Origin: an uncultured Ignavibacteriales bacterium
GTDB lineage: Bacteria > Zixibacteria > MSB-5A5 > GN15 > JAAZOE01
Reading direction: 5' to 3'
Length of the DNA: 64,000 nt
NCBI GenBank assembly: GCA_964523575.1
Contig: CAZGAV010000012.1
Coordinates: forward strand, 385 to 64,384
How positions within the stretch are numbered: position 1 is the first letter of the stretch; the number at the start of each line of letters is the position of its first letter. Both the position numbers and the translations under genes were made by a program. Under the pieces are notes generated by a model that was not told the DNA's origin, did no database searches, and worked only from the letters and a program-made list of their open reading frames with translations. Positions 22,081-44,681 of this stretch are shown one piece after another.

Positions 22081-22093
22081 CATCTCAATAACA

Positions 22094-22259
22094 CATTTCG
22101 GTCCCGAAAGCGGTTAATAGGGAAGACGGTGAAAGACCGTCGCAGCCCCGCTACTGTAATCGGCTACGAAAGGGCCAATATTCCACTCTCCCGGGTCGGC
22201 CGGGGGGGGAAGGGGCCCCGGTAGGCATGATGCCGTAAGCCAGGAGACCTGCCGGAATG
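22094..22259 (+). ncRNA. Cobalamin (B12) riboswitch
   Basis: Conserved elements aatagggaa..cggtgaaa.accg..gcagccccgctactgtaa and the B12 box aagccaggagacctgcc, with P1 closure catttcgg/ccggaatg. It lies upstream of a TonB-dependent receptor. Confidence 0.93.
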
Positions 22260-22296
22260 GTAACTCGTAATTCGACAGCCCTCGCGGGAGGGGGAG

Positions 22297-24642
22297 TTGA
22301 AGTTGTCCCGAACCCCGAAAGCGGCTGCCGGGAATTTTTTTGGCCCGATTCCCGACAGATCATTCCGAAAAGCGGCGGTCATTTATCGGCTGATAATTCT
22401 GTGCCTGATTCTTGGCTTCGGTCACATGGCGCAGGCCCAGACTACAGTCAGAATTTCCGGCTGTGTTTATGACGCCGTCGACGGCCATCCCCTCCATCAC
22501 GCCCTGATTACCCTGCGCGGCACCGACTTCGCCGCCGTCAGCGATCAATTCGGCCGTTTCGAATTGGAAAATATCCCCGACGGCCGCTATCGTCCGGAAG
22601 TATCGGCTTTCGGTTATATTTCGCAGACGACTGAGGCGATTGACGTCGTGGTCGATATCACGCGCCGGATAACGGTGCATCTCGAACCCCGGTATCACGA
22701 CATGGGGCGAACCGAGGTTATCGGAGAAGCCGCCCCGTCCCTTACCGGTGATATTGAGATCATCGATCAGCAAGCTATTCAGAGTTCGAATGCCCATACT
22801 CTAGCTGAGGTCCTCGACCGGTTGGAGGGCGTCTATATCCAGGATTCCGGCCCAGCCGGCGGCAAAAAACAAATCAGCATCCGCGGCAGTGCCGCCAAAC
22901 ATGTTCTGGTGCTCCTCGACGGGCGGCGTCTGAATCCGGCCGGAAGCGGCGAGGCCGATCTTAATAGTATTCCGTTGGAAATGATCGAAAAAGTGGAGGT
23001 GTATAAAGGCGGGGAGTCGGCCCGGTTCGGCGCCGACGCATTGGGTGGCGTGGTAAACATTATAACGCAGGCAGGGCCGGGTCGGAGCCGCCCGGAGTTG
23101 AAAGCTCATACCTATCGCGGCCGTTGGGATACCGACCTTTACGATTTGACCCTGATCGACCCGGTTCGGTTCAAGGGCCTGACAACCAAGGTCACTTACG
23201 GTTTCCGTGGCTCCGAAGGCGATTTCGATTACAATTACACGGGGGCCGTCTTTCCGCGTCAGGGCGTGGAACGGGTTTACGCCGGTACCCGGGCCAACGC
23301 CGATTTCGAAAGCCGCAATTATTTTATATCGAGCCTTTATCAGGCGCGGCCGGGCACCAGTCTCAATTTTTCGGGTCAGCTCTATCGGTCCGATCAGGGT
23401 TTGCCGGGTAAAGCCTCGCAACCCGATTCCACCAGCCGCAAAACCGACGATCGTATTCTGGCCGGTATCGGAATGGAGCATCAGTTTTCGCCGAAACAGG
23501 TCCTTCATATGTCGCTTGGCTATTCTCGTCTGAAACAGGAGTTCGAGAACGAAGCGGGAAGATCTTCCTATCATAGCCGCTATACCAATGATATCGCAGA
23601 TATGGAAATCTCCGGCCGCAGTCGGTTTTGGTCCGGCAATGAAATCGGCGGCGGTGTCGCTCTGCGCCGCGATATCCTGTACCATGATGAAATACTCCAT
23701 CCCGAACGGAGTATGGGCCGAACCATACGCGATAATATCGGATTGTTTGCTTCCGACCGCCAGACCTTTGACCTCAACAGCTTGCCTGTCTGGGATTTGG
23801 CCGCCGTCGATGTGTCGCTTCGCCGGGATCGTACCGACACCCGTCAGGACAAATTAGCCAGCGCCGAGTCGCCGTCAACGAATCATCTCTCCCATTGGTC
23901 GCAAAAGATCGGAGCCTCGCTTTCCGCCGGCGTCCGACTTCGTCTGGTCGTTCGGGGCAGTTATGGAACTTCCTATCGCTTGCCGGAGATGAACGCTTTA
24001 TTCTGGAAGAATGATATCCGGTCGCAGGGCAACCCCGACCTGAAACCGGAACGATCCGAACATTCCGACGCCGGCTTTGAGATAAGTCTGGATAAACCGA
24101 TCAGAATTTCGGCCGGCCTGACTTATTTCCACAGCCATGTCAATGAGATTATCATCTGGCGTCCCAGTTCGCCGCTGGGGATATGGACGCCTGAGAACCT
24201 CGACGCCGCCCTGATCACCGGGCATGAGGATTTCGTCCAGATCGGTCTGTGGGATGATCGGGTGCGTCTGAGCTACGGCAATACCATCACCAATCCCCGG
24301 AACAAATCGCGAGGATCCTCCAACTATAATAAGGTCCTGACCTTCCGGCCCCATTATGTCACCAGCCTTGACTGCGATCTCCGGTTCTGGATACTTCGCG
24401 GTGCCTATCAGATCCGGATGGCCGATATCCGATATCTTCTTGACGCCAACACCCGCTGGTACGGCGCTTATCGCGTCGATAACGCCGATTTCGGCATCCA
24501 GACCGAAATGTCCCGTGTCAAAATCGAGGCCGGGTACCGGGTGCGCAATCTGCGGGGGGAGAACTACGAATTGATTGCCCAGTATCCGATGCCGGGACGG
24601 GAATGGGGCGTTGACCTGTCCGTATCCTGGCGATTGGAATAA
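22297..24642 (+). CDS. btuB: TonB-dependent receptor, BtuB-like, with N-terminal carboxypeptidase-regulatory-like domain
   Basis: Plug motifs SIRGS...VLVLLDGRRL, IEKVEVYKGG.SARFGADALGGVVNIIT, then NPDLKPERS and the C-terminal YPMPGREWGVDLSVSW. Function is inferred from the riboswitch. Confidence 0.85.
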   Translation: MKLSRTPKAAAGNFFGPIPDRSFRKAAVIYRLIILCLILGFGHMAQAQTTVRISGCVYDAVDGHPLHHALITLRGTDFAAVSDQFGRFELENIPDGRYRPEVSAFGYISQTTEAIDVVVDITRRITVHLEPRYHDMGRTEVIGEAAPSLTGDIEIIDQQAIQSSNAHTLAEVLDRLEGVYIQDSGPAGGKKQISIRGSAAKHVLVLLDGRRLNPAGSGEADLNSIPLEMIEKVEVYKGGESARFGADALGGVVNIITQAGPGRSRPELKAHTYRGRWDTDLYDLTLIDPVRFKGLTTKVTYGFRGSEGDFDYNYTGAVFPRQGVERVYAGTRANADFESRNYFISSLYQARPGTSLNFSGQLYRSDQGLPGKASQPDSTSRKTDDRILAGIGMEHQFSPKQVLHMSLGYSRLKQEFENEAGRSSYHSRYTNDIADMEISGRSRFWSGNEIGGGVALRRDILYHDEILHPERSMGRTIRDNIGLFASDRQTFDLNSLPVWDLAAVDVSLRRDRTDTRQDKLASAESPSTNHLSHWSQKIGASLSAGVRLRLVVRGSYGTSYRLPEMNALFWKNDIRSQGNPDLKPERSEHSDAGFEISLDKPIRISAGLTYFHSHVNEIIIWRPSSPLGIWTPENLDAALITGHEDFVQIGLWDDRVRLSYGNTITNPRNKSRGSSNYNKVLTFRPHYVTSLDCDLRFWILRGAYQIRMADIRYLLDANTRWYGAYRVDNADFGIQTEMSRVKIEAGYRVRNLRGENYELIAQYPMPGREWGVDLSVSWRLE

Positions 24643-30545: not shown

Positions 30546-32357
30546 ATGATCGTTTCTCGAAAAATCATCACACTTTTTCTGATCCTGTCGGCGATGCTGG
30601 TTATCGGCGCCGCGACGGTTCGGGCTTCCGATTTCAATTATGATATGAAACCGGAGGTGCTCGATGCTCTCAATCGTCACGACACCACGCTGGCTCTGAC
30701 GATGATTAACGACGCTATCAAGCTCGACCCCGCCTATGCTCCCAATTATTTGCTTAAGGGAGAAATTTTTTACGCCCGGAAGCAATTGCCCGAGGCCCTG
30801 GCTCAGTTCCAGACGGCATTGGAGAAGAAAAGCAAACTTTATGAGGCGCTGTATTATTCGGGCCTGGTTTATCTCGATCAGGATGATCTGGAAAAAGCCG
30901 AGAAGGCGTTCAACCAGGGTCTGAAAAAAGCCAAGGATGAATTGGCTTTGTTTCACAACGGCATGGGCCTGTTGCTTCTCAAGAAGAAAGAATACACTAA
31001 GGCTGACGTCGAATTCCGCAAGGCCAGCAGTATCGGGCCGGACCGCGCCGAATATCACGCTAATCTTGGCGACGCCAATTATTTCGCTCAATCCTACCCC
31101 CTGGCGATTAATGAATATAACAATGTCCTCACAATGGACACGACCTACCTTGACGTCTATTTCCGTCTGGCGCGCGCCTATGTCGCCCAGGGCCAGTACA
31201 ACGACGCCCTCAACCAGCTTCGGGTGGTGTTGATCCGCGATAGCCTGTATACACAGGCCTGGAATGAGATCGGGCGCCTCTATACCATGGCCGGACTTTC
31301 GGCCACTGATCGCGATACCAAGGTACAACGGTTTACTGAGGCGATCGGGTCCTATAAGAAATATCTGGAACTCTCCCACGATACGACCGACGGTGAGGTC
31401 TATTTCAATATCGGGCGTTCCTATTTCAATCTGGGCGCTTTTCCGGAATCCGACTCGGCTTTCGAACGGGTTCTGACCATCGGCGACGTGCCCAAAAATA
31501 TTTATCTTTATCTGGGCCGCGGCTATATCGCCGAGGGCGAGTTCGAGAAGGGGATTGAAGACCTCAACAAGCATCTGGCCTGGATGAAAGAGCAGGACCC
31601 GGACTGGAAGCCGGGCGCGACCGAAGCCGATATTTTCCGTCGTATAGGCGACGGTTATAAAGCCGAGCAGAATTGGGCCAGCGCCGCCGAGAATTACGCG
31701 AAGGCCGCGGAACTGGCCCCGGACGATCCCCGGATCGTGGTCGAGGCGGCTGTAGCTTATCATCAGTTACAGGATTTCCCGAAGGCCCTCGAGTATTATC
31801 AAAAACGAATATCTCTCGGTCCCGACAGCTGGAATATTTACATGAATGCCGCCTATTGCACCATCCATATGGAAGACTGGGAAAAATCGGTGGAATACCT
31901 CAAGAAAGTGGTCGAGCTGGATTCGACCAAAGTGAAGGCTTATTCTCTGCTGTCGGATGCCTATATGCTCCGTCTGCAGGATTGCGAAAACGGCGTCAAA
32001 TGGACCAAGAAATGGCTGGAACTCGATTCGACCAGTTGCGACGCCATGAAGACGCTTGGTTTCGGTTATTTCGGCGGTGTGTGTCCGGCGGATTATATGG
32101 CCGCCATCAGCTATTTCAAGAGGGCTTTGAACTGTTACAAAGCGGCCGGGACCAGCGAATGCGGCAACGAGGATCTTATCGTTTATATTGCGCAGGCTTA
32201 TCACCTCTATGCCGCCGATCTTCTGGAACATGACAAGAAACAGGAATCGAAGGAGTATTTCAAGGACGCCTTCGACTGGTACAATAAATGTTTGAAATGC
32301 AACCCGGGTAACGCTGATTGCAAAAAGGGCGTGAGCGATACCGAGTTTGAATTCTAA
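30546..32357 (+). CDS. Large periplasmic tetratricopeptide repeat protein
   Basis: Signal peptide, many TPRs (YHANLGDANY, VYFNIGRSY, IFRRIGDGY) and a Cys-rich C-terminus. Confidence 0.85.
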   Translation: MIVSRKIITLFLILSAMLVIGAATVRASDFNYDMKPEVLDALNRHDTTLALTMINDAIKLDPAYAPNYLLKGEIFYARKQLPEALAQFQTALEKKSKLYEALYYSGLVYLDQDDLEKAEKAFNQGLKKAKDELALFHNGMGLLLLKKKEYTKADVEFRKASSIGPDRAEYHANLGDANYFAQSYPLAINEYNNVLTMDTTYLDVYFRLARAYVAQGQYNDALNQLRVVLIRDSLYTQAWNEIGRLYTMAGLSATDRDTKVQRFTEAIGSYKKYLELSHDTTDGEVYFNIGRSYFNLGAFPESDSAFERVLTIGDVPKNIYLYLGRGYIAEGEFEKGIEDLNKHLAWMKEQDPDWKPGATEADIFRRIGDGYKAEQNWASAAENYAKAAELAPDDPRIVVEAAVAYHQLQDFPKALEYYQKRISLGPDSWNIYMNAAYCTIHMEDWEKSVEYLKKVVELDSTKVKAYSLLSDAYMLRLQDCENGVKWTKKWLELDSTSCDAMKTLGFGYFGGVCPADYMAAISYFKRALNCYKAAGTSECGNEDLIVYIAQAYHLYAADLLEHDKKQESKEYFKDAFDWYNKCLKCNPGNADCKKGVSDTEFEF

Positions 32358-32402: not shown

Positions 32403-33791
32403 ATGGCCGACGATGAGAAAAATAAAAAGTCGACTGGTCCATCCGAGGAACGCTTCAAATACATCGGTTTTGACGTGTTTCCCGGCAAAGCCGGAAACAT
32501 GTTCAAATCGGATGAGGAACGGAAGACCTGGGTGGAAAAGGTCCGGGCTAAATTATCGCGCAGTCAGGGCGAGGTGCGGGACCGTTGCACTCTGATGGAA
32601 ACACGCGTTTCCTCGGTGGAAAAGATCTTTTTAACGCTGGCGGCGGTGGTCATGCTGGCCGGCCTGTTCATCCCGTGGTTTTCGGGATATATACCGGTTT
32701 CCTATTCCGAACTCGGGTCCTTTGGCGATTATTCGTTCTTTTACGCCTCCCGGGTCGACGAGAGAGGTATCAGGGATTTATCCAATGCCCTGATCACGAA
32801 ACAGGAAAAACGTTACGCCGCCGACCGGGCGGCGGAAAATGCGGCCCCGGTGCCGCCCTTGACCAATGATGCCGTTCCGATTGACAGTGCCACTGTTGCG
32901 GAACAGGTCGCGACGGCCGACACTGTCGTCAAAACGAACGAGGAAGAGGCGGCGCAGGGCCAGATGCCCCAGGAATCAGCCGGCGGCGGGGAACCTGAGA
33001 GAGTTCCGGTGCCGGAGGCGATTAATGTCATTTTCGTCAATACTCCCGATATCGATCAAATTCACGGCGTTGATGATTTGAGGAAACATGTCGTGGCGGC
33101 GTTCAGCTATAACGCCCGCACCAAACGGGAAGACCTGGTGCATGGGAGCGACGGGGTGATGGGGATACTTCCCGATCAGATGCTGTTGAAGGCCCGGTCG
33201 GACGATTCCATAGCAACGGCGGTCACCGATTCCATGAGGGCGGCGGCGGCCAAGCGAATCGCCGCCGGCGACAGCACCATCAGTCTCGATTCGATCGCTT
33301 TCGCCGGGCCGATTCTGGTCAGCGATAAAGCGGTGCCCGAACTGGCGCTCAAGGGTATCGTCAACGACAATTACTCCGTCACCGGCATCGGCGCCCTGCT
33401 GTCTTTCGGCGCCTACAGCTCCCGAATTTTTTCCAGCGGGCTGGTGCTGGTTATCTCCGGTATTTTTCTGATCGTCTATTTCCTGTCATGTGTGGTTATC
33501 GCGATCCTCGACCTCTACCTGTTATACGGGGGCGGGAAGAAGGGGACGCCGGAGGCGCAGATATTATACCTGAAACGTATGCTCCGTTACAACTGGGTGC
33601 CGGTCATTCTCTGGCTGGGCATGTTTGTACTGTCGTTTTTCGGGGCTTCCTACGGCTTTGATCCTTCGGGCTTGCTGCAACAGGTGGGCGATTCCTATGG
33701 AATCGGGACCTTCATCGGCCTGTCGTCATTTGGAATGTATATTACCCTGGGCGCTTTTCTGATTGTGGCGCTGAAGGGGAAAGAGATATAA
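32403..33791 (+). CDS. Hypothetical membrane protein with large extracytoplasmic loop
   Basis: One N-proximal TM, an acidic low-complexity linker and about 4 C-terminal TMs. It lies immediately upstream of exbB. Confidence 0.7.
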   Translation: MADDEKNKKSTGPSEERFKYIGFDVFPGKAGNMFKSDEERKTWVEKVRAKLSRSQGEVRDRCTLMETRVSSVEKIFLTLAAVVMLAGLFIPWFSGYIPVSYSELGSFGDYSFFYASRVDERGIRDLSNALITKQEKRYAADRAAENAAPVPPLTNDAVPIDSATVAEQVATADTVVKTNEEEAAQGQMPQESAGGGEPERVPVPEAINVIFVNTPDIDQIHGVDDLRKHVVAAFSYNARTKREDLVHGSDGVMGILPDQMLLKARSDDSIATAVTDSMRAAAAKRIAAGDSTISLDSIAFAGPILVSDKAVPELALKGIVNDNYSVTGIGALLSFGAYSSRIFSSGLVLVISGIFLIVYFLSCVVIAILDLYLLYGGGKKGTPEAQILYLKRMLRYNWVPVILWLGMFVLSFFGASYGFDPSGLLQQVGDSYGIGTFIGLSSFGMYITLGAFLIVALKGKEI

Positions 33792-33840
33792 AGATTCGAG
33801 AAGCGAAACGAAATTCACATAGAGTGGAGGAATAGTAAAG

Positions 33841-34599
33841 GTGAAACAGACAATCTTCGTAACTCTGAACGCGTTGATTTCCTTTGCCATCGGTTATGTC
33901 ACATGGGGAATCATCTTGAAGAATACTGAAGAGGGCACTCTGCCCCATTCGATTTACCAGGGCGGGCCTCTGGTCGTCCTGCTGATCATGATTCTGCTGA
34001 TGCTTATGTCTTTCGTGGTGGAACGGTTCCTGTCCCTGCGCGTCGCCAAGGGCAAAAGTTCCGTCCAGGTGTTCTTCAAGAACCTGATCGGCCATCTTCA
34101 GAACAACGATTTCGAGTCGGCGCTGGCGGCCTGCGACAAGCAGCGCGGCACGACGGCCAACGTTCTTCGGGCCGGTATTGAGCGATACATGCGCGTCAAA
34201 GACGATAACACCATGGAATCCGAGAAGAAGATGGCCGCGACACAGGCGGCTATCGAAGAAGCCAACGCGCTGGAAGGCCCGCTTCTGGAGCGCAACCTGA
34301 TCGCCATGTCAACGATCGCCTCGATCGCCACCATGGTCGGTCTGCTGGGTACGACCATCGGTATGATCCGCGCCTTTGCGGCCACCGGCCATGCCTCCGG
34401 CGGTGTTATCGATGCCACTCAGCTGGCGACCGGTATTTCCGAAGCGCTGGTTAACACCGCCGGCGGTTTGACTTCCGGTATTCTCGGTATTTTCTTCTAT
34501 AACTATTTTGTCAACAAAGTTGACTCTTTCAACTACACGACCGATGAGGCTACCTACGAGGTGCTTCAGTTGTTGAAAGCCAAGGAGGCGGCGAGTTAA
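33841..34599 (+). CDS. exbB: MotA/TolQ/ExbB proton channel protein
   Basis: IATMVGLLGTTIGMIRAF and GISEALVNTAGGL. Confidence 0.92.
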   Translation: MKQTIFVTLNALISFAIGYVTWGIILKNTEEGTLPHSIYQGGPLVVLLIMILLMLMSFVVERFLSLRVAKGKSSVQVFFKNLIGHLQNNDFESALAACDKQRGTTANVLRAGIERYMRVKDDNTMESEKKMAATQAAIEEANALEGPLLERNLIAMSTIASIATMVGLLGTTIGMIRAFAATGHASGGVIDATQLATGISEALVNTAGGLTSGILGIFFYNYFVNKVDSFNYTTDEATYEVLQLLKAKEAAS

Positions 34600-35070
34600 A
34601 TGAAGATTAAAAAGAAAAGGCGCCTCAGCATCAAGATCGATATGACCCCGATGGTGGATATCGCCTTTCTTCTCCTGATCTTTTATATGACGACGACTCA
34701 GTTCAAACCGCCGGAGAAGAAGAAGGTCGATTTGCCGACGTCGCATTCGCAGGTTTCCCTGCCGGATAAGGATGTCATCAACGTCACGGTGACGGCCGAC
34801 GATTCCATCTTCGTCGATTATATCGTCAAAAAAACGGTTAATATCGACGGCCGCGATATCACGATGCCGGTGCGTATGTATGACGAGGCGACTACTGGCA
34901 CGGTCGGCGCCCTGATTAACTCGGCCCGAATTCGCAGTCCCCGGGCCTTTCTGGTGATCAAAGCCGACAAGCAATCGAGTTACGGGGTGATGGAAGGGAT
35001 AATGAAAACCCTTCAGGAACAACATCTCTCCCGTTTCCAGATAATCACGCTGAGTGAACAAGAGACTTAA
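34600..35070 (+). CDS. exbD: ExbD/TolR family protein 1
   Basis: IDMTPMVDIAFLLLIF (conserved Asp) and IKADK..SYG. Confidence 0.9.
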   Translation: MKIKKKRRLSIKIDMTPMVDIAFLLLIFYMTTTQFKPPEKKKVDLPTSHSQVSLPDKDVINVTVTADDSIFVDYIVKKTVNIDGRDITMPVRMYDEATTGTVGALINSARIRSPRAFLVIKADKQSSYGVMEGIMKTLQEQHLSRFQIITLSEQET

Positions 35071-35091
35071 CGTTTAAGGTGGTGATTTAAC

Positions 35092-35718
35092 ATGGCTGGT
35101 GCCGATGTAAGTGCAGACAGGCCAAAAGGCGGAAAGAAACAAGGCCTGCGCCGTCCCAAAAGGCGGCTCTCTGTCCGAATCGATATGACTCCGATGGTCG
35201 ATATCGCGTTTCTCCTGCTTATTTTCTATATGGTAACGACGGTTTTTTCGATGCCGCAGGCGATGGAAGTCAACCTGCCGCCGGCGTCTGAGGAAGAAAC
35301 TCAGATCAAAGTCAAAGACAGCAATCTTCTGACCATTCATGTCGACGGAAAAAACCAATTCTACTGGAATATCGGGCGCGAGTTGCCGGTGCCGATGAAA
35401 GCCGATTCCCTTCGAACCCTCATGGTCGACCAGAACAAGGCCAATCCCAAATTGAGCACGCTCCTTATCATCAACAAGGAAGCCCGTTATAAAACCATGG
35501 TTGACATCCTCGACGAGATCGATCTCATAGAACGTTCCTTCAATAACGCCACGGCCAAGGAACTGGGCGTCACTCTGAAAGATTTCAACGATCCCGATAA
35601 TGAGCGGTACGAGGAATTTAAGGCCAAGAAGTTTTCCTACCGCTATGCCATGTCACCCTGGGAAGACCGCGATTCGAGAATTATCGAAAAGGTCCTCTCA
35701 TTGCATGGGGGTGAATAG
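35092..35718 (+). CDS. exbD: ExbD/TolR family protein 2
   Basis: IDMTPMVDIAFLLLIF and ARYKTMVDILDE. Confidence 0.9.
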   Translation: MAGADVSADRPKGGKKQGLRRPKRRLSVRIDMTPMVDIAFLLLIFYMVTTVFSMPQAMEVNLPPASEEETQIKVKDSNLLTIHVDGKNQFYWNIGRELPVPMKADSLRTLMVDQNKANPKLSTLLIINKEARYKTMVDILDEIDLIERSFNNATAKELGVTLKDFNDPDNERYEEFKAKKFSYRYAMSPWEDRDSRIIEKVLSLHGGE

Positions 35719-35720
35719 CT

Positions 35721-36446
35721 ATGGCCCAATCTGCAAGCACCTATTACGGCGCGTTTGAATTAAAACGCAGGTACCAGCGCAATATGTTGCTGGGTACCGG
35801 TTTTTCGGCGGCCTTGACGGCTTTGGTTATCCTCTCGATATGGATTTACAATATTATCACCTATGAGGATATGGAAGTCAGAAACGTCGTCCGGATCAAA
35901 ACCATCGCTGAACTGGGCGCGCCGCCTTCGCTGGCGGCTAAACCGCCCCAGGTCAGCATCGACAAGCCGAATGTCGCCCCACCCAAGGTCGGTATTCCGA
36001 CGGCGGTGGCCGACGATGAGGTCGTCGATGAGGATATCGTTATCGCCTCCCGGGAAGAACTCCAGGAGATCAATGCTCCGGTGCTGTCCGGCGCCGGAAA
36101 CGGTTCCAATACGGAACTGATTATCGATATCCCCGATGAAGACTATATGCCTTCGCCCGACGAATTCGTTCCGGTGGAAGAATACCCCGTACAGATTTCC
36201 GAGGAAATTCCGGAGTACCCTCGTCTGGCGCAGGAAGGCGGATTCACCGGATCGGTGATTGTCCAGGCCTATGTTGACAAAAACGGCGACGTCAAGAAGG
36301 CTCAGGCGGTAAAATGTACTCGGCCCAATATGGGCTTTGAGGAATCCGCGGTCAAAGCGGCCTACAAAAACAAATATCGCCCGGCCATCCAGAACGGCAA
36401 TCCCATCGGCCTCTGGATCGAGTATAAAATCGACTTTACGCTCTAA
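35721..36446 (+). CDS. tonB: Energy transducer TonB 1
   Basis: YGAFELKRRY N-terminus, a TM, a Pro/acidic linker, and TonB_C (PEYP..A..G.V.V...VDKNG..FEESAVKA..YRPAIQNG). Confidence 0.9.
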   Translation: MAQSASTYYGAFELKRRYQRNMLLGTGFSAALTALVILSIWIYNIITYEDMEVRNVVRIKTIAELGAPPSLAAKPPQVSIDKPNVAPPKVGIPTAVADDEVVDEDIVIASREELQEINAPVLSGAGNGSNTELIIDIPDEDYMPSPDEFVPVEEYPVQISEEIPEYPRLAQEGGFTGSVIVQAYVDKNGDVKKAQAVKCTRPNMGFEESAVKAAYKNKYRPAIQNGNPIGLWIEYKIDFTL

Positions 36447-36624
36447 TCGCCGAAATGAAATGCGGGGGAAGATAGAGCAATCTTCCCCCGGCAAATTCGT
36501 TATACCCCTCCGGGGCGGCCGCCCGTCCCGTTGACGTCACATCCCTCACGTCCCTCACGTCCGCGCAGCGCTACTTACCGGTAGTCCGTACACCGGAACG
36601 AGAAAACGGTGTGGCGGCCTTCCG

Positions 36625-36706
36625 TCCGAGAGAAAAGGCGTTAACCGGTCAGCCTTCGGCTTCGAAGCCGGCGGCCGACCAAGACAGCCTTTGAACGGAG
36701 GGAAAA
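36625..36706 (+). promoter_or_regulatory. Structured 5' leader A (homologous to 37733-37804)
   Basis: Starts tccgagagaaaaggc. aaaggc pairs with gccttt (36687-36692) around an inner ggtc/gacc and cggct/agccg stem, ending 4 nt before the ggaggg SD. Confidence 0.5.
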
Positions 36707-37006
36707 ATGAGGATACGCTATAGCCAACAGGCGCTGGTCTGGCAGAAACCGGACCGACTTCGGGAAATCGGCGTGTTTCCTCCCGGATGGCGGCAAGAAT
36801 GGTTCACCAACCTCTGCCTGGCGGCGGCTCTGACGGCTCTGTTGTTTCTCATGCTGTTATCCATCTATCTTGTTTTCACCAAACCGGCGGCGACGTCCAT
36901 TCCCGGCTATCCGCGCACCGGAGCCGCGGCTTCGGGTACGGGATTCGCCCATATTAACGGCCCGTCGGATGGGGAAGCGCCGATCGTTTCAAGAAACTGG
37001 GGATAG
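36707..37006 (+). CDS. Small single-TM protein A (99 aa)
   Basis: Strong ggaggg SD and TM LCLAAALTALLFLMLLSIYLV. Similar to 37805..38128. Confidence 0.6.
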   Translation: MRIRYSQQALVWQKPDRLREIGVFPPGWRQEWFTNLCLAAALTALLFLMLLSIYLVFTKPAATSIPGYPRTGAAASGTGFAHINGPSDGEAPIVSRNWG

Positions 37007-37044
37007 CAGGAATCAGCGCCGTTTATCGAAGGAGGTGATGATAA

Positions 37045-37704
37045 ATGGCAGGCGTTGATCTGGGCAAGGCCCGACCCGTCCGAGACGATAAGCCGAAAAG
37101 CCGGCGTCGAATAAAACGTCGCACCGGCGTGCGAGTGGTTATGACGCCGATGGTTGATATCGCTTTCCTGCTGTTGATTTTCTATATGGTGACCACGATT
37201 TTCGCCATGCCCCAGGCGATGGGGGTCAATCTTCCGCCCGACGAGGTCGTTACGGTTGGGAAATTGCTCACCATCCGGGTTGATGGACAGAATCGATTTT
37301 ATTGGAATCTCGGTCATGATTTGCCGGTCCCGATGAGGGCCGATTCCCTGTTCACTTTGCTTTTTGATAAGAGCCGCGAAATCCCGAAACTGAATACCCT
37401 GCTTACCATCCATCCGCAGGCAAGATACCATGTTATGGTCGATATCCTCGATGAAATCGACCTGGTTGAAAGAAAGTTCAACGACGGGGTAGCGGCCAGA
37501 CTCGGCGTTTCCGCCGAAATTTTCAACGATCCCGATAATGACCGATACAGCGAATTTTATGATAAACGATTTTCGTATCGTTACGCCACCGCGCCGTGGG
37601 AGGACCGCGACACCAGAATAATTAATAAGATATGGCGCACCGGAAGGGGGGGAATAGCCATGAATAACAAAACCGCGATTATCTTTGATGATGAGTTTCC
37701 TTGA
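37045..37704 (+). CDS. exbD: ExbD/TolR family protein 3 (close paralog of ExbD2)
   Basis: MTPMVDIAFLLLIFYMVTT. It aligns over nearly its full length with 35092..35718 (FNDPDN.RY.EF, FSYRYA..PWEDRD.RII). Confidence 0.88.
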   Translation: MAGVDLGKARPVRDDKPKSRRRIKRRTGVRVVMTPMVDIAFLLLIFYMVTTIFAMPQAMGVNLPPDEVVTVGKLLTIRVDGQNRFYWNLGHDLPVPMRADSLFTLLFDKSREIPKLNTLLTIHPQARYHVMVDILDEIDLVERKFNDGVAARLGVSAEIFNDPDNDRYSEFYDKRFSYRYATAPWEDRDTRIINKIWRTGRGGIAMNNKTAIIFDDEFP

Positions 37705-37728
37705 CGACTATAAAATATAAGTTATAAT
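37701..37728 (+). promoter_or_regulatory. sigma70-type promoter for the ORF B-tonB2 unit
   Basis: TTGACG-N16-TATAAT, overlapping the exbD3 stop codon. Confidence 0.7.
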
Positions 37729-37732
37729 ATTT

Positions 37733-37804
37733 TCCGAGAGAAAAGGCCGATGATCGGCGCCGGGCCGGTCATACATCCCGCGACCTTTTGATAAGGAGGG
37801 AGAC
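37733..37804 (+). promoter_or_regulatory. Structured 5' leader B
   Basis: Same 15-mer tccgagagaaaaggc. aaaagg pairs with cctttt (37784-37789) around atgatcggc/gccggtcat, ending 5 nt before the ggaggg SD. Confidence 0.55.
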
Positions 37805-38128
37805 ATGAGCCTTTTTTCAAACCCCGAATATATAATTCTCACGCCCATCCCCGCGAGAGCCGCCGTCGCTTGCACCGACAGCGGGAATTATGCCGTCATA
37901 AAATCGCTTTTGATGGCCGCCGTGCTTGGCGCGGTGCTGTTCATGACGGTCCTTTCCATCCTGTTCGTGCATTTGGGCCAGGTTCCGTCTTTCCCCGGAA
38001 CTCATACCGGCCGGAATCATGATAAACCGCGGATGGTACAGGCCCTCGATACTCTCCAAAACAATTCTGACTGCTTTATATCAATAACAAAGACAAAAGG
38101 GGGTGAATATCATGATGCGCTCATTTGA
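37805..38128 (+). CDS. Small single-TM protein B (107 aa)
   Basis: aaggaggg SD and TM LLMAAVLGAVLFMTVLSILFV. Similar to ORF A. Confidence 0.6.
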   Translation: MSLFSNPEYIILTPIPARAAVACTDSGNYAVIKSLLMAAVLGAVLFMTVLSILFVHLGQVPSFPGTHTGRNHDKPRMVQALDTLQNNSDCFISITKTKGGEYHDALI

Positions 38129-38864
38129 ACTGCCTTATGGCGCCTTTGAATTAAAAAGCCGCTACCAGCGAAATATGCTTATCGGAACGACAACGGCCGT
38201 GTTGCTGGCGACGGCGTTGATCAGCTTAATCTGGATTCTGGGCTGCGCCGCCGCAGTGGAAACGCAGATTGTGGATCCGCCCGGACTCACCGACAGCATG
38301 ACGATAATATTTGTCGAGCCGTCTCCACCCGGCATCGACGATATTCGAGGCGGCAAGGGCATCAAACCACCGCCGCCATCTAAATTGGATAATGGTATTT
38401 TCGTCGCGGTTGACGATTTACTGGCCGAGGAGGATACGGTCGACTTTTCGGAACTGCATAAAAGGGGGACAGGTGAATACGATCCGGAGGCGGAATATGG
38501 CGAAGACGGCGACCAAGGTGAGCCCGGCGGGCTATATATCGGCCCGGAGGTAATACCTCCCGTGGGGGCTTTCATCGCTGTCGAAGTTGGGCCCGTGATC
38601 ATCCATGAACAAAAACCGGAATATCCGCGTCTCGCCCTGGAGGGGGGATTCACGGCTTCGGTTTTCATCGACGCCTTCGTTGGCCGCGAAGGACAGGTGC
38701 TCGACGCCCGAGTCGCCCGATGCACTCGAAACCATATGGGTTTTGAGGAAGCGGCCCTGAAGGCCGCTTATAAATGCACCTATCGGCCGGCCATCCAGAA
38801 CGGGGCCCCGGTCGGTGTCTGGATCAGCTATCAAGTCGATTTTGTCTTGGACAGGTCGCGATAG
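38112..38864 (+). CDS. tonB: Energy transducer TonB 2 (paralog of TonB1)
   Basis: YGAFELKSRYQRNML, a TM, and TonB_C ..CTRNHMGFEEAALKAAYK..YRPAIQNG. It has the same gggggtgaata start context as tonB1. Confidence 0.88.
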   Translation: MMRSFELPYGAFELKSRYQRNMLIGTTTAVLLATALISLIWILGCAAAVETQIVDPPGLTDSMTIIFVEPSPPGIDDIRGGKGIKPPPPSKLDNGIFVAVDDLLAEEDTVDFSELHKRGTGEYDPEAEYGEDGDQGEPGGLYIGPEVIPPVGAFIAVEVGPVIIHEQKPEYPRLALEGGFTASVFIDAFVGREGQVLDARVARCTRNHMGFEEAALKAAYKCTYRPAIQNGAPVGVWISYQVDFVLDRSR

Positions 38865-39066
38865 AGCAAAATAATTCCCCCTCGTCGGTTCACCCGGGGG
38901 CCGGACGCGGCCCCCCTTCGCCGCCTTATTTTTGTGTTGTCGATATCGGGCCGGGGCTGAAAGGCACTTTTCCTATGGGGGCATTTTCAATATGTCGTGT
39001 CGATTTTTAGATTGACCACAATATATGGCAATCGGACTCCAATAATGATAATTATAAAAAAATCGC

Positions 39067-39095
39067 TTGACAACTGCACAAATGTGCAGTATTTT
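39067..39095 (+). promoter_or_regulatory. sigma70-type promoter whose spacer is filled by an 18-bp palindrome (candidate LexA/SOS box)
   Basis: TTGACA-N17-TATTTT, with ACTGCACA-aa-TGTGCAGT at 39073-39090. Confidence 0.7.
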
Positions 39096-39137
39096 TAATT
39101 TGACACCGATAATAATACCGGACACAAGGAGCAGGCC

Positions 39138-39356
39138 ATGGATTGCAATCAATACTCGGAACGGAAAGTTATCTCCGCGGCGGACCGATGCCGGGGCTCG
39201 TCGCAGCGGAAACCGGCACCATCGGACGAGGCGCGACTTTTAGCGTCCCGGCCATCGTCCGGCCCGCAGGCGGGTCGTTGTACCTGTGGGGGAGTGCTGG
39301 TCAGGCGCGGATACTGCTTCGTGTGCGTTGTCTGCGGCTGGGGAAGTTGTGAGTGA
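39138..39356 (+). CDS. Zn-ribbon microprotein (72 aa) resembling the C-terminal Cys-rich tail of class II ribonucleotide reductases
   Basis: aaggag SD and C-terminal CTCGGVLVRRGYCFVCVVCGWGSCE. Confidence 0.6.
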   Translation: MDCNQYSERKVISAADRCRGSSQRKPAPSDEARLLASRPSSGPQAGRCTCGGVLVRRGYCFVCVVCGWGSCE

Positions 39357-39412
39357 ATTGGGGGAGTATTTCCGGGGCCGGCCATAGGGCCATAATTCAG
39401 GGGGATGAAACG

Positions 39413-42040
39413 ATGCGAAAACGACTGGCGAAATCGGGACTGCCGGAGCCGATTCTGGCGCAATGGGAAGAACGATTCCACGGGCGACTTCTGCCGCTCC
39501 AATATCGGGCGGTTGAGGAATATAAGCTTCTGGAGGGGAATTCGCTTTTAATCTCGGCGCCGACCTCTTCGGGCAAAACCTTCTGCGGCGAAATGGCTCT
39601 GGTGCGGGCCGTGCAACAGCGGCAGAAGGGCATTTTCCTGGTGCCGCTGAAGGCGGTGGCCGAGGAAAAATACCGTCACTTCGTCGATTGCTACGGCGGC
39701 CTCGGCTTACGCGTCGTTATCGCTACCCGGGATCATCCCGAAAATGACGGCCTGGTCGAAAGCGGCCGGTTCGATATCGCCGTGATGATTTACGAGAAAT
39801 TCAATTCCCTGTTATTGACCAATTTTGACCTCATGTCGCAGGTTGGCACGGTCGTCGTCGATGAATTGCAGATGCTTGAGGACAAAACGCGCGGGCCTCA
39901 ACTGGAATTGGCCCTGACCAAACTGCTCTATTCGGAATACCGGCCTCAGCTGGTGGCTCTTTCGGCCGTTCTGGGCGAAGCCACCGAACTGGCCGAATGG
40001 CTGGGTTGCCGCCTCTTGCTGGAAAATATGCGCCCGGTGGAATTACGACGGGGGGTGGTTTCTGACGGTCGTTTCTATTTCCGATGCCATAATTCCGGCG
40101 AACTGGGGGAAGATACCTGCCGGCAGGGCGAAGATATCAACCTGACCTTGTTCGAGAATATCCAGGCGGTCACGGCCGTCGGCAAACAGACTTTGGTGTT
40201 TCTCAAATCGCGGCGCGATACCATGCTCGCGGCCCGGCGTTTCGCGGAATATACCCATCGTGCATCATGGTCGAAAAACAAAGAATTCTTCGATGCAAAG
40301 TTGGCCGACGAAGAGGAATCGTCGCTTCTCAAAAACCTCCGCAGTCTTCTGACGGTCGGCATTGCGTTCCATAACGCCGACCTGACCGCCGCCCAACGGC
40401 TGGCCGTCGAAGAAGGTTACCGGGCCGGTTTGATCGACGTTATTTTTGCGACCACTACTCTCTCGACCGGCATCAACTTACCTGCGGCGACAGTTTTCAT
40501 CGAGGCGCAAAAATATCGGCGGCAGGGCTATAGCGGCCGTCCCGGTCTCGAACCACTCTCATGGGCCGAATACGAAAGCATGTCCGGTCGGGCCGGCCGA
40601 GTCGGATTGACCGATGAAGAGGGCGATGGCCAGGCGGTGTTATTCGCCTCCGGCGAACTGGAGAAGTCAATTCTCTGGGAATACTATATCGACCGGCAGG
40701 CGGCGTCGCTCAAATCCCAATTGCCGTCGCGCCATCCGGCCGATATCCTCATCGACCTTTTCAGTTCCGGGCTTGTTCGGAGCCCCGAGGAGACCGCCCG
40801 GCTTCTCGAAAAATCATATTGCCATATATGTAATGACCAAAATACAAGCGATATAGAGAATATATGTGAAGTATTACTTGATGATGGTTTTTTGGTTCGG
40901 CAGGGCCGGCAAATCACGGCTACGCCTCTGGGGCAAACCGTTGCCGTCACCGGCATGACGGTGGCCGGCGCCGACTGTATCCTGAAGAGACTGCCCCGTC
41001 CCGAAACCGAAAGCGACGGTCAAATCCTCTTTCATTTGTTCCAATTGCCCGAGGCCGGATCACTGTACTTGCCGACACCAGCCGGCCGAGGGCGGATGCG
41101 CCTGCCTCGAAGATTTTTCGCCGAATCGGCTGAGGAAAATCCGTTAATCCGGGAGCTGTCGGCCATGCAGCGGGAACTGGCCCCCGACGAAATCAACCGC
41201 CTGGGGCTGGCGCTTTTGATGGAAGACTGGATGGCCGGAATGCCGGCCATCGAAATCGAAAGCAATTACGCCCTTCATCCGGGGATGATGGAAAATCTGG
41301 GTTATCAAACGGGATGGCTGCTGGCTTCGGCGGCGGCTATCGTCCGCGCCTGCGACCGTTTTGCATCCCTGCCCGCGCGACTCGATGATCTGGCCTTTGC
41401 CTCCCGGACGGGACTGCCGGTCGTTTATCGGGACCTTTACAAGGATTTCGGGGATATCCTTTTCCGCAGTGACTGGCTGGCTCTGCATCACAGGGAAATC
41501 ACCGATCGGCGCCGGATGCTTGATGAAGGTCTGGAGATTATCAGAAGTCGGACGAAGTCGGAAGAACGCCTGATCAAAATCGAAGAAAGATTCCATAAAA
41601 TAAAGGAGGCTTCTATGTCATCGAAAGGTGTATCGATGCTGAGTACGGCCCCGTGGCCGGAAACCATTGAAATCGACGGAACTCCCATCCGGGAACGGTT
41701 CCGGGTGCGGATCAATGGTCATACGGTGAACCTGACCGGGAAATCTTTCAAGTACCTTGTCAAGCTGGCCTGGTCGAGGCTAACTAAAGACAGTGGATGG
41801 TTATACAAGGAAGATTTAGAGTGTGGCTTTAATCAGGCCCGATACCTGTATCGTCTCCGACAGGAGATCGGCCGGGATTTTCTGCCGGAATGGCCGTTGT
41901 ACGAAAACAACCGCTCTGGCTATTATCGGCTGGCCGCTGACCGGGAAGGGATCAAGATCAATGTCGAGGCTTTGAAGGAAATTCCGGATTATGAGATTCA
42001 GCAAATAGCCCTGGATTTGAATCCGGTGGCGGCCGGTTAA
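39413..42040 (+). CDS. Ski2/Hel308-like SF2 helicase with C-terminal OmpR/PhoB-like winged-helix domain
   Basis: Motifs APTSSGKT, VVVDELQ, ALSAV, MRPVEL, AFHNADL, TTTLSTGINLPA and MSGRAGR. C-terminus is INGHTVNLTGKSFKYLVKL..YLYRLRQEIG..ENNRSGYYRL. Start trimmed to ATG 39413. Confidence 0.88.
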   Translation: MRKRLAKSGLPEPILAQWEERFHGRLLPLQYRAVEEYKLLEGNSLLISAPTSSGKTFCGEMALVRAVQQRQKGIFLVPLKAVAEEKYRHFVDCYGGLGLRVVIATRDHPENDGLVESGRFDIAVMIYEKFNSLLLTNFDLMSQVGTVVVDELQMLEDKTRGPQLELALTKLLYSEYRPQLVALSAVLGEATELAEWLGCRLLLENMRPVELRRGVVSDGRFYFRCHNSGELGEDTCRQGEDINLTLFENIQAVTAVGKQTLVFLKSRRDTMLAARRFAEYTHRASWSKNKEFFDAKLADEEESSLLKNLRSLLTVGIAFHNADLTAAQRLAVEEGYRAGLIDVIFATTTLSTGINLPAATVFIEAQKYRRQGYSGRPGLEPLSWAEYESMSGRAGRVGLTDEEGDGQAVLFASGELEKSILWEYYIDRQAASLKSQLPSRHPADILIDLFSSGLVRSPEETARLLEKSYCHICNDQNTSDIENICEVLLDDGFLVRQGRQITATPLGQTVAVTGMTVAGADCILKRLPRPETESDGQILFHLFQLPEAGSLYLPTPAGRGRMRLPRRFFAESAEENPLIRELSAMQRELAPDEINRLGLALLMEDWMAGMPAIEIESNYALHPGMMENLGYQTGWLLASAAAIVRACDRFASLPARLDDLAFASRTGLPVVYRDLYKDFGDILFRSDWLALHHREITDRRRMLDEGLEIIRSRTKSEERLIKIEERFHKIKEASMSSKGVSMLSTAPWPETIEIDGTPIRERFRVRINGHTVNLTGKSFKYLVKLAWSRLTKDSGWLYKEDLECGFNQARYLYRLRQEIGRDFLPEWPLYENNRSGYYRLAADREGIKINVEALKEIPDYEIQQIALDLNPVAAG

Positions 42041-42128: not shown

Positions 42129-44681
42129 TTGTATAAGCCGATAAGAAACGTAAAGATGACCATGATTATAAAGCCTCGTAAACATTTGCCGCTTGACGAA
42201 ACTCAGGCGGAAAAAAACCTGCCGGTTTTACCGCTCAGGTCGGCCGTGATATTTCCGGGTGAAATTTACACTATCCAGATGGGCCGCAAGGAGAACCTGG
42301 AACTGCTCAAGGCTGTAGCCCAGCGGGATAACCTGCTGGTCCTATCCTTCGCACCCCAGGATGTGCCATCCGGGGCCGCCCCGCGGCTGTCTCAGGTGAG
42401 CGTCCTGGCCCGGATCGAGTCCATCAAGCCGTCAATGGCCAATTCACAGATGGTCACGCTCGAAGGACTGCAACGTGTCGCCCTGATGGATATCGTCACC
42501 TCGGTGCCGTTCATCGAGGCCCGGGTACAGGAGGTCAGGGAGGAAAACACCGACGGAAGCGTCGTCGAAGGTTATCTCTCAGAAGTCACGCACCTGATGA
42601 CCCAGCTGGTCCGAATCGATAATCGTTATTCCAATGAATTGATATATAATCTGGAAATGAACCGACCCTTGCCGAGCGCCTTCGCCGATCGCATCGGGGC
42701 TATGATTCATTTTCAATTGAGCGACAAGCAGGAAATTATTGACTCCCTGGAAATCGGCAGTCGTCTCGAAACGATAATCCGCCTGCTCAAAGATGAAATC
42801 GACAAATTTTCCCTGACGACGCAGATCAATACGCGGGTGAACGAATCGCTGGAAAGGAAGAAGCGCGAGAATTTCCTGCGCCAGCAATTGGCCGAAATCC
42901 GGAGGGAGCTGGGCGAAGAGTTTATCGAGGAAGACGTTTCCAAGATCTATCGCCAGAAAATCAGCGAAAACAAGGCCTTGCCGGCCGAGGTCGCCAATCG
43001 TCTTCTCCTGGAAATCGATCGCCTGGTGCATCTGCCGTCGTCTTCGGCGGAATACGGTTCCACCAAAAATTATATCGACCTGATGCTCTCGTTGCCGTGG
43101 CAGAGCCCGCCCATGGAACCTTTCGATCTGGTCGACGTTGAAGCCGCTATCGGCCGCGAATATTACGGGCTGTCCCATATCAAAGAACAGGTTCTGGAAT
43201 ATCTGTCGATGCGGCAGTTGAGCCGCGATAAAAGGGATTTGCCGATCCTTTGCCTCGCGGGCGCGGTTGGAACCGGCAAGGCGTCTCTGGTCAAGGCTAT
43301 CGCCAAGGCGATGGGCCGGGAATTGGTCCGAATCAACGGCACCAGCCTGATAATCAGCGAAGATATCAAAGGTTTGCATCGCAGTGAAATCGGTTCCGGA
43401 CCGGGGCAATTGGTGCGTGCCATCCAACGCGCCGGATCATTCGATCTCGTGATCTACCTCGAGGATCTGGAGTATGTGATCGAATCCGAGGACACCAACG
43501 CCCTGCTGGCCTTGCTGGAGGCCGTTGATCCGAGGCAAAACGGCCATTTTGTCGATAATTTCGTCGGCATTCCTCTCGATCTTTCCCGGGTCTTGTTCGT
43601 TCTGGGCATTACCGCCGAGGATTTCCCGGAACCGTTCGCTCACCGCCTGGAAATGATCGAGATGTCGGGCTATATCGAGCGGGAGAAGATCGTCATTACC
43701 AAGAAACATATCCTGCCCAAATTGTATAAACGATATGGCTTGACCCGGGCCGAATTGCGTTTTACCGACCGGGGTCTGGCGCGGATTATTCGCCAGTACA
43801 CTATGGAAGCCGGGACGATCGGACTGCAACAACAGCTGGAGAAGATTTTCCGGCGGATTACCCGCAAGAAAGCCATCAGCGAAAAATGTAATTATGTGCT
43901 CAAGGAAAACAATGTCGATCAGTACCTGGGAACGCCGCAGTATATACCCGAGAAGGCCATGTCCAAGCCGGAAATCGGCGTGGCCAACGGTCTGGCCTGG
44001 ACCGGAGCCGGCGGTGATTTAATGCTGATCGAAGGATTGAAAATGCGGGGTACGGGCCAGGTTTTCACGACCGGATCATTGGGCGAAGTGATGAAAGAAT
44101 CGATCCAGGCGGCCCATAGCTTTGTGCGCGCCCGGGCCGATTTACTCGGGATCGACCATAATGACTTCGTCAATTTCGATATCCATATTCACTTTCCACA
44201 GGGGGCTATTCCCAAAGATGGCCCTTCGGCCGGGGTTACCGTCTCGCTGGTGATCGCCTCGGTTATGGCCGAACGGCCGATTCGGAGTGATATCGCCATG
44301 ACCGGCGAAGTGACGCTTCGAGGCCGGGTACTGCCGGTCAGCGGCGTCAAAGAGAAGGTCTCGGCGGCCTACCGCGCCGGAGTGCACACTATTATCCTGC
44401 CCAAGGAAAATCAGAAGGATATCAAGGAAATACCGCGGGAAATCGTCCGGAAAACATCGTTTGAGTTCATCGAAACCGTCGACGAGTTATTCGAAAAAGG
44501 ACTGCTTGATTTTACTCCCTCGACCTATACTCTGGAAAAAATCTTTGCCGAGGAAATCGAAAAGGCCCGCAAACGAGGCCGTACGAAATCCAGGGCCGCC
44601 GCAGGCAAAACCCCGAAAAAGACTAAAACCACCAAGAGCAAAGCTACGAAAACCAGGACGACGAAAAAGAAAAGTGAATAG
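42129..44681 (+). CDS. lon: Lon (endopeptidase La)-like protease with degenerate AAA+ motifs (start may be ATG 42156)
   Basis: LPVLPLR N-domain, a protease domain with PKDGPSAG (Ser) and GVKEK (Lys), Walker [10 protein letters not shown] and Walker B region IYLEDLE. Confidence 0.88.

Follow-up and report, generated by a model that had tools for sequence, protein, structure and literature searches.

What do the two small genes do that stand in front of exbD3 and tonB2, the additional exbD and tonB copies in the Ton operon of an uncultured Ignavibacteriales bacterium (GTDB Zixibacteria)? We analyzed contig CAZGAV010000012.1 (assembly GCA_964523575.1) from position 385 to 64,384, and this whole stretch of 64,000 nt is referred to as the window. 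A sequence-only reading of the window had proposed that an open reading frame (ORF) of about 100 amino acids (aa) with a GGAGGG Shine–Dalgarno (SD) sequence precedes each of the two genes, and that the pair represents homologous modules, each consisting of a leader and a single-transmembrane (TM) microprotein, which gate exbD3 and tonB2. Both ORFs are present, ORF-A before exbD3 and ORF-B before tonB2, with the SD located 4–5 nt 5′ of each ATG.

ORF-A and ORF-B proved to be real, conserved protein-coding genes that are homologous to each other, and we read the locus as a Ton operon that has gained accessory genes along with leaders predicted to mask the SD. Our preferred interpretation, in which confidence and doubt are about evenly balanced, is that both genes encode small single-pass accessory or modulator subunits of the ExbB–ExbD–TonB motor, with leaders that would occlude the translation start, and that ORF-B would license tonB2. 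The genes concerned are as follows.

33841–36446, plus strand: core Ton operon exbB-exbD1-exbD2-tonB1, in the same order in the related loci L004, L010, L015, L020, and L021
33841–34599, plus strand: exbB (Pfam MotA_ExbB)
34600–35070, plus strand: exbD1 (Pfam ExbD)
35092–35718, plus strand: exbD2 (Pfam ExbD)
35721–36446, plus strand: tonB1 (Pfam TonB_C)
36707–37006, plus strand: ORF-A, 99 aa, single-pass membrane protein (ORF call)
37045–37704, plus strand: exbD3 (Pfam ExbD), with its own SD
37805–38128, plus strand: ORF-B, 107 aa, paralog of ORF-A
38112 (ATG; ORF call from 38103) to 38864, plus strand: tonB2 (Pfam TonB_C)
38907–38924, plus strand: terminator-like hairpin and T-run, end of the unit after tonB2

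ORF-A and ORF-B belong to one protein family

BLASTP aligned ORF-A with ORF-B at 14/37 identities (E 2e-4). We built family alignments of 41 ORF-A sequences (A5) and 10 ORF-B sequences (A6), and the comparison of their profiles with hhalign yielded a probability (P) of 91%, an E value of 1.1e-6, and a score of 40.9 over 42 columns. Reversed profiles scored 17.8 (P 2%), and 30 full column shuffles reached at most 16.8. Even when only the TM block was shuffled, preserving its position, composition, and flanks, 30 replicates did not exceed 25.2 (P 22%). These scores indicate that the similarity exceeds that between random TM helices, and the shared TM signature quoted in the sequence-only reading, whose peptide strings are exact, is thereby substantiated. 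In the AlphaFold2 monomer models, residues 26–57 form the sole confident helix in ORF-A and likewise in ORF-B, and the tails are disordered. Additionally, a covariance model built from the leaders of ORF-B alone matched leaders of ORF-A, in L017 (30.5 bits, E 1.5e-5) and in L007 (17 bits); the ORF-A homolog of L017 begins with MSLFA, similar to the MSLFS of ORF-B. The profile match, the helix position, and the leader matches together indicate that the two modules, leader and ORF, are paralogs, as had been proposed.

We identified eight ORF-A homologs at 49–99% identity. A profile search of 1.84 billion cluster representatives (clusters at 50% identity) returned 37 matches, 35 of which are ~76–138 aa long; the other two are long repetitive proteins and were left out of the alignment. 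The family shares the core WRQEWFxNLCLAxxLAxxxFLMLLSIYLVxTKPxP, followed by a G.A[FY]A motif; although the proteins are only 42–80% identical, 23 columns of the core do not vary. Apart from the G.A[FY]A motif, the tails diverge.

The proportion of synonymous differences (pS ~0.62–0.70) shows that synonymous sites are saturated, and the whole-gene ratios of nonsynonymous to synonymous substitution (dN/dS, 0.2–0.6) are therefore weakly informative. We relied instead on the split between core and tails and on codon-position identity. In the ORF-A core, the proportion of nonsynonymous differences (pN) was 0.24 versus a pS of 0.62, and the identities at codon positions 1/2/3 were 0.66/0.83/0.52; the corresponding identities in the ORF-B core were 0.45/0.68/0.37. 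The order 2 > 1 > 3 in both cores is indicative of coding-type evolution.

The invariant run FLMLLSIYLV comprises 10 consecutive residues and covers all faces of the helix. Conservation on all faces suggests burial in a protein assembly rather than lipid exposure.

Neither ORF-A nor ORF-B matched a Pfam family at E values up to 1, in contrast to TonB1 and TonB2, which match PF03544. Searches of Pfam, NCBIfam, and PDB with ORF-A, ORF-B, and all 41 family members returned only noise attributable to TM composition (e.g., Ac76, E 0.002). The homologs are annotated as "hypothetical protein" in their source records. The protein family is thus undescribed in the libraries searched, and the expectation of undescribed small proteins holds. 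The only taxonomically labelled genome with a match is a metagenome-assembled genome of Candidatus Zixiibacteriota (L010), and the window sequence recurs in salt-marsh metagenomes; the family is so far limited to Zixibacteria-like genomes and to sediment or salt-marsh metagenomes.

The position behind tonB1 is constant and the downstream genes are not

The anticipated linkage to exbD and tonB was found. In 12/12 related loci read as DNA, ORF-A follows exbB-exbD-exbD-tonB1 at a distance of 207–260 nt, and in a thirteenth contig, for which gene calls were used, the gap is ~540 nt. The gene content downstream of tonB1 differs among the loci:

ORF-A only: L020
ORF-A and ORF-B, without tonB2: L017–L019
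ORF-A and tonB2, without ORF-B: L021
ORF-A, ORF-B, and tonB2: L005–L008, L010, L012, and L015
ORF-A, exbD3, ORF-B, and tonB2: the window and the near-identical contigs L001 and L011
ORF-A, split exbD3, ORF-B, and tonB2: L022 (~85% DNA identity)

Based on this variation, the constant unit is tonB1 followed by ORF-A, and ORF-B, tonB2, and exbD3 are successive optional additions. Past the unit, too, the neighborhood changes from one lineage to the next: the window, L017, and L020 have a helicase there, and L007 and L010 have other genes. This turnover argues for a linkage to the Ton operon rather than general synteny.

The gating of exbD3 and tonB2 by the modules did not survive this comparison. 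ORF-A occurs with neither gene in L020, tonB2 is missing from L017, and tonB2 occurs without ORF-B in L021. The exbD3 gene is confined to the clade of the window and is missing from L005–L008, L010, L012, L015, and L017. In L022, the corresponding region (959–1506, equivalent to 37045–37704 of the window) carries a ~64-nt deletion that leaves ORFs of 75 and 107 aa, reflecting either decay or an assembly error. ExbD3 and ExbD2 are paralogs with 61% aa identity; TonB2 and TonB1 share 40%. The spacer between ORF-A and exbD3 is 38 nt long and contains the SD of exbD3, and neither a promoter nor a terminator was predicted within it; the two genes appear to share a transcript. The exbD3 gene would then be a late, clade-specific insertion that merely rides on the ORF-A transcript. 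In contig L001, exbD3 is called as 203 aa and not 219 aa.

ORF-B overlaps the start of tonB2

The tonB2 ATG (38112) lies 17 nt inside ORF-B, and the tonB2 SD AAGGGGGUGA is located within the 3′ end of ORF-B. The 17-nt overlap is identical in seven lineages (the window and L005–L010). This arrangement, with the SD inside the upstream gene, makes translational coupling of ORF-B and tonB2 likely. The C-terminus of ORF-B, KGGExHD, is conserved because the SD and the start of tonB2 overlap there. The stop codon 17 nt past the tonB2 ATG and the internal SD resemble those of coupled overlapping gene pairs. Unlike in typical pairs, the gene upstream does not specify a dedicated leader peptide: it encodes a conserved membrane protein and has a leader of its own.

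In L009, ORF-B is followed by a tonB gene (715–1434) whose product carries an anchor and a linker of the TonB1 type (LLSIWLYNMVTYEDMEIKEV) instead of TonB2-like ones. ORF-B may therefore be coupled to either type of TonB.

The leaders are predicted to fold over the translation starts

The following elements were recognized in and around the leaders of ORF-B (B-leader) and ORF-A (A-leader, in the tonB1–ORF-A spacer).

37731–37828, plus strand: B-leader with a three-helix fold (RNAalifold consensus of 11 lineages)
37701–37728, plus strand: sigma-70-like promoter TTGACG-16-TATAAT, 11/12 match (promoter prediction)
36463–36490, plus strand: GC-rich hairpin downstream of tonB1, GGGGGAAG...CTTCCCCC, lacking a plus-strand U-tract, its position kept in all relatives
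36535–36558, plus strand: CCUCAC-repeat block CGTCACATCCCTCACGTCCCTCAC, complementary to the ORF-A translation start
36618–36706, plus strand: proximal A-leader, a long imperfect stem (fold z-score −3.65)

The B-leader consists of three helices, P1 to P3. In P1 (12 bp), the 5′ motif GAGARAAAGGYC pairs with codons 2–5 of ORF-B; in the window, 37738–37748 (GAGAAAAGGCC, within a 15-mer at 37733–37747) pairs with 37809–37818 (GCCUUUUUUC). P2 is a hairpin (37750–37758 with 37764–37772) whose sequence differs in every lineage. In P3, the anti-SD UCCC (37776–37779) and CCUU (37784–37787) pair with the SD AAGGAGGGA (37793–37801). Across the alignment, 96.6% of the cells were paired, compared with 42–64% when the partners were slid by 1–3 columns, and the single-sequence z-scores ranged from −2.3 to −3.9. 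The first five codons of ORF-B read ATG RGC CTT TTT TCR in 11/11 lineages, and pS is ~0.66 elsewhere. The P1 pairing and the frozen synonymous sites indicate that the invariant N-terminus, MSLFS or MGLFS, reflects an RNA constraint. From the predicted promoter, transcription would start at or inside the B-leader motif. Similar promoter-like sites precede the motif in L022 (10/12) and L007 (9/12), and they are weak or absent in the other lineages.

The CCUCAC block is the most conserved noncoding element of the tonB1–ORF-A spacer and is unique within the window. The predicted partner of CCUCA (36544–36548) is UGAGG at the start of ORF-A (36708–36712; AUG and codon 2), and that of UCCCUC (36551–36556) is the ORF-A SD, GGAGGGA. 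RNAalifold on a plain MAFFT alignment of the A-leaders yielded no structure. Only folds of individual long-leader sequences revealed the helix between block and start, whose pairs were then counted on an alignment (A9). In the minimum free energy structures, CCUCA-CAU-CCCUC of the block pairs with the SD GAGGG and the start UGAGG in 8–9 of the 10 lineages folded. On the alignment, 86.8% of the cells were paired, versus 41–55% with slid partners, and four pairs change on both sides. In the proximal A-leader, the 5′ strand carries the anti-SD CCUUCC-G-UCCG, followed by the 15-mer TCCGAGAGAAAAGGC (36625–36639) and a variable hairpin, and the 3′ strand carries GCCUUU-GAA-CGGAGGG (SD at 36697–36702). 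CCUUCC-G-UCCG faces CGGAGGGAA, and AAAGGC faces GCCUUU. The latter helix covaries, as AAAGUU/AACUUU in L010 and AAAGGUGCA/UGCGUCUUU in L021. Transcriptional read-through past the hairpin after tonB1 into ORF-A is plausible. A second conserved GC hairpin of the GGGGCGGCCGCCCGUCCC type (36505–36530, plus strand) is located between this hairpin and the CCUCAC block in most relatives; it may serve in RNA processing or in transcription, or belong to the leader.

The 15-mer TCCGAGAGAAAAGGC occurs at 36625, the coordinate at which the sequence-only reading began the region, and recurs as an exact repeat at 37733; the respective ATGs follow at distances of 82 and 72 nt. No other exact copy was found in the 64-kb window, and the B-leader covariance model detected no further copy over the same 64 kb, so we rejected a dispersed element. 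An intrinsic terminator on the minus strand, formed by the 15-mer and the hairpin, was likewise rejected, with one weak match in the window and gaps of 8–12 nt between stem and U-run in L007 and L013. A promoter or start element explains the 15-mer at best in part: a strong sigma-70-like site precedes only its B copy, and does so only in the window, L007, and L022.

On average, the SD is predicted to be paired with a probability of 0.77 in the A-leaders and 0.76 in the B-leaders, in comparison with 0.52 in eight neighboring control genes. The comparative pairing data place both leaders in the functional class of SD-sequestering structured leaders. Riboswitch platforms, fourU/ROSE thermometers, and the fold-backs of hok, tisB, and aapA1 likewise use a conserved 5′ element to cover the SD, the AUG, or the initial codons by base pairing, and the pyrimidine-rich CCUUUU and CCCUC segments of the ORF-A and ORF-B leaders would mask AAGGAGGG. 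Unlike such leaders and type I toxin mRNAs, they had no Rfam match, and no aptamer-like core was identified and no antisense RNA was found. Rfam 15 returned nothing relevant over 33000–40000 at E values up to 10, and nothing on six related loci at E values up to 1; the sole match at gathering score in the window is a cobalamin riboswitch away from the leaders. Both leaders form a candidate new cis-regulatory RNA. As each is predicted to pair with its own translation-initiation region, translation should be low by default and would need an opening event.

Proposed role and alternative explanations

The small genes are proposed to operate as follows. In the A-leader, the distal CCUCA..CCCUC block and the proximal CCG would pair with the SD and the AUG; in the B-leader, the 5′ motif would pair with codons 2–5 while the local anti-SD hairpin forms. 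By occluding the translation start, the leaders would hold the synthesis of both proteins low until a trans-acting factor, processing, or co-transcriptional kinetics opens them. The products may assist or modulate the ExbB/ExbD/TonB motor as subunits that dock through the half of the helix nearer the periplasm, which is almost invariant (FLMLLSIYLV), and translation of ORF-B would drive that of tonB2 through the 17-nt overlap. The host is uncultured, and we infer the motor-subunit function from gene linkage alone (12 loci as DNA and one by gene calls) and the coupling to tonB2.

Several observations weigh against this proposal. ORF-A and ORF-B are not homologous to any component of the Ton, Tol, or Mot systems. 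The linkage lies within what may be a single phylum, and shared ancestry could inflate the association. The tails of ORF-B are near-neutral in some pairs (dN/dS 0.9 for L013 vs L015), and the topology given by charge bias is weak, with 27/41 ORF-A members favoring N-in and ORF-B being ambiguous. As to expression, no RNA run containing the locus was found among the sequencing runs searched, and the four salt-marsh runs with the locus are low-depth DNA metagenome contigs, which confirmed the gene order. As to the leaders, the occlusion of the SD is predicted from thermodynamics. The changes in P1 are one-sided and solely wobble-compatible (A-to-G opposite U, C-to-U opposite G), and the covariation in the A-leader helix is modest, with 9/500 shuffles reaching the observed score; covariation is modest because the paired SD and AUG are constrained anyway.

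The alternative that survives best, although we regard it as unlikely, is that the two proteins have a role unrelated to Ton, e.g., in envelope stress or in another complex, and that their adjacency is inherited gene order. All contexts derive from one orthologous locus, the sole taxonomic label obtained is Candidatus Zixiibacteriota, and hhalign, PDB, and family searches found no sequence link to Ton components. What speaks for a Ton-related role is the junction between tonB1 and ORF-A, which stays constant while the downstream genes vary between lineages, together with the specific recruitment of Ton genes by the locus duplications, with tonB2 coupled to ORF-B and exbD3 placed behind ORF-A.

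The sequence-only reading had also seen a resemblance to the TonB1 anchor and had suggested TonB-anchor mimics. As decoys sitting where TonB docks on ExbB/ExbD, the helices would tune which of the TonB paralogs receives energy. The anchor comparison itself speaks against this explanation, which we consider improbable. Against the first 60 residues of 18 TonB1 and TonB2 proteins encoded in these loci, ORF-A reached an hhalign score of 17.6 (P 4%) and ORF-B 13.2 (P 0.8%), the level of the reversed and ExbD-anchor controls; comparisons with ExbD anchors gave P ~1%. With scores at background, descent from a TonB or an ExbD anchor was rejected, and the perceived resemblance to TonB1 is not borne out; a convergent decoy role without homology, though improbable, would be compatible with these scores. 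The TonB pre-anchor motif YGAFELKxxYQRNM is absent from both families. The N-terminal signal anchor of Escherichia coli TonB spans residues ~12–32 and contains the S16/H20 motif. This S-x3-H spacing is not conserved in the small proteins: ORF-A lacks the His, and half of the lineages have Arg, Lys, or Gly in its place in ORF-B. A hidden Markov model (HMM) search of all PDB chains returned no TonB, ExbB, or ExbD chain, and 0/41 family members matched PF03544 (TonB_C).

Some likeness to TonB does exist. In both proteins, a segment with Pro follows the single TM helix, the genes lie in the Ton locus right after tonB1, with ORF-B directly before tonB2, the proteins have the LSI(W/Y) tripeptide in common with TonB1, and the conservation on all helix faces fits burial in a protein complex. 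Their periplasmic tail, unlike that of TonB, is limited to ~40 disordered residues without TonB_C. A likeness also exists to the ExbD/TolR anchor, which is likewise a single N-proximal TM helix and whose FLLLIFYMVTT superficially resembles FLMLLSIYLVFT of ORF-A; unlike in ExbD/TolR, the essential TM Asp (MVD in TPMVDIAF) and the periplasmic PF02472 domain are missing. One of the 41 members matched PF02472 (ExbD/TolR) at E 0.23, which is noise, and the helix of the family contains no Asp.

Still less probable are type-I-toxin-like membrane proteins, silenced by a 5′ fold-back of their mRNA and placed next to tonB by coincidence as tandem duplicates. Tandem duplication is frequent at type I toxin loci, and such an origin would fit the tandem paralogs, the single hydrophobic helix, the fast-evolving tails, and, in both mRNAs, a 5′ leader predicted to pair over a long distance with the translation start. 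Typical type I toxins are smaller than the ~100 aa found here, and their loci are patchy, whereas the position behind tonB1 is fixed in the 12 DNA loci despite saturated dS. No antisense RNA gene was evident, and no consistent antisense terminator or promoter was found.

Finally, the view of the ORFs as leader peptides or upstream ORFs, of which the act of translation alone matters and which control exbD3 and tonB2, can draw on the probable influence of ORF-B translation on tonB2 through the 17-nt overlap and the apparent co-transcription of ORF-A and exbD3, but is otherwise largely refuted and very improbable, given a conserved product of ~100 aa with a near-invariant core of 23 columns and coding-type codon-position conservation, ORF-A without a downstream gene (L020), ORF-A and ORF-B without tonB2 (L017), and an exbD3 that is clade-specific and split, probably by decay, in L022.

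Other elements of the locus

Upstream of exbB, the operon contains two further genes.

30546–32357, plus strand: tetratricopeptide repeat (TPR) protein, start of the Ton operon of the window
32403–33791, plus strand: multi-spanning membrane protein of 462 aa, without a Pfam or NCBIfam match

The membrane protein gene is kept between the TPR gene and exbB in L004 (464 aa), L010 (473 aa), and L021 (339 aa), and it is a further uncharacterized component of the Ton locus. TonB2-type systems of Vibrio include the accessory proteins TtpB, TtpC, and TtpD, which are large and either multi-spanning or TPR proteins. The window operon, starting with the TPR and 462-aa membrane proteins, resembles them in having extra membrane or TPR proteins in an exbB-exbD-tonB operon. 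Unlike TtpB, TtpC, and TtpD, ORF-A and ORF-B are single-pass proteins of 100 aa and show no sequence relationship to them.

The cobalamin riboswitch (RF00174, 106 bits) is located at 22082–22270 on the plus strand, directly 5′ of a TonB-dependent receptor gene (22297–24642, plus strand) encoding Plug, beta-barrel, and CarboxypepD_reg domains. The receptor appears to be a BtuB-like protein for B12 uptake that depends on the present Ton system.

Behind the unit, the sequence TTCCCCCTCGT..TCACCCGGGGGCC...CCCCTTC.CCGC (38870–38930, plus strand) recurs in L017 (~2165–2230) and L020 (~3245–3290), and is thus conserved even where tonB2 or ORF-B is missing. The terminator-like site falls within this stretch, so the locus appears to have a fixed end and a variable gene content. 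Further downstream, the perfect-arm palindrome ACTGCACAAATGTGCAGT (39073–39090, in an element at 39067–39095) lies within a promoter-like TTGACA-17-TATTTT, upstream of a small Cys-rich, zinc-ribbon-like ORF and the genes for a DEAD-box helicase (39353–42040) and Lon (42129–44681). It is kept in the distant relatives L017 (~2335–2365) and L020 (~3395–3425) and looks like a candidate operator for a repressor.

Implications

Ton, Tol, and Mot stator complexes have been studied intensively, and we know of no small single-helix regulator of the ExbB–ExbD–TonB motor; a full-text literature search likewise found no small single-helix or small-protein regulator of this motor. In a further-reaching form of our proposal, which we consider no likelier than a role unrelated to Ton, ORF-A and ORF-B would be RNA-gated single-helix subunits, in which the almost invariant helix, docked on or in ExbB/ExbD, switches or partitions the motor between TonB paralogs and the purine-rich motif CCGAGARAAAAGG shared by the leaders acts as the sensor of a signal. 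If true, Ton-type energy transduction would have its first regulator that is a small protein, and a new cis-regulatory RNA would come with it. The leader of ORF-B offers a clear example of an RNA helix that freezes the first five codons of a gene. The constrained helix, the fixed position at the end of the Ton operon, the duplication together with the leader, and the probable coupling to tonB2 make this family a concrete candidate for a Ton-motor regulator.

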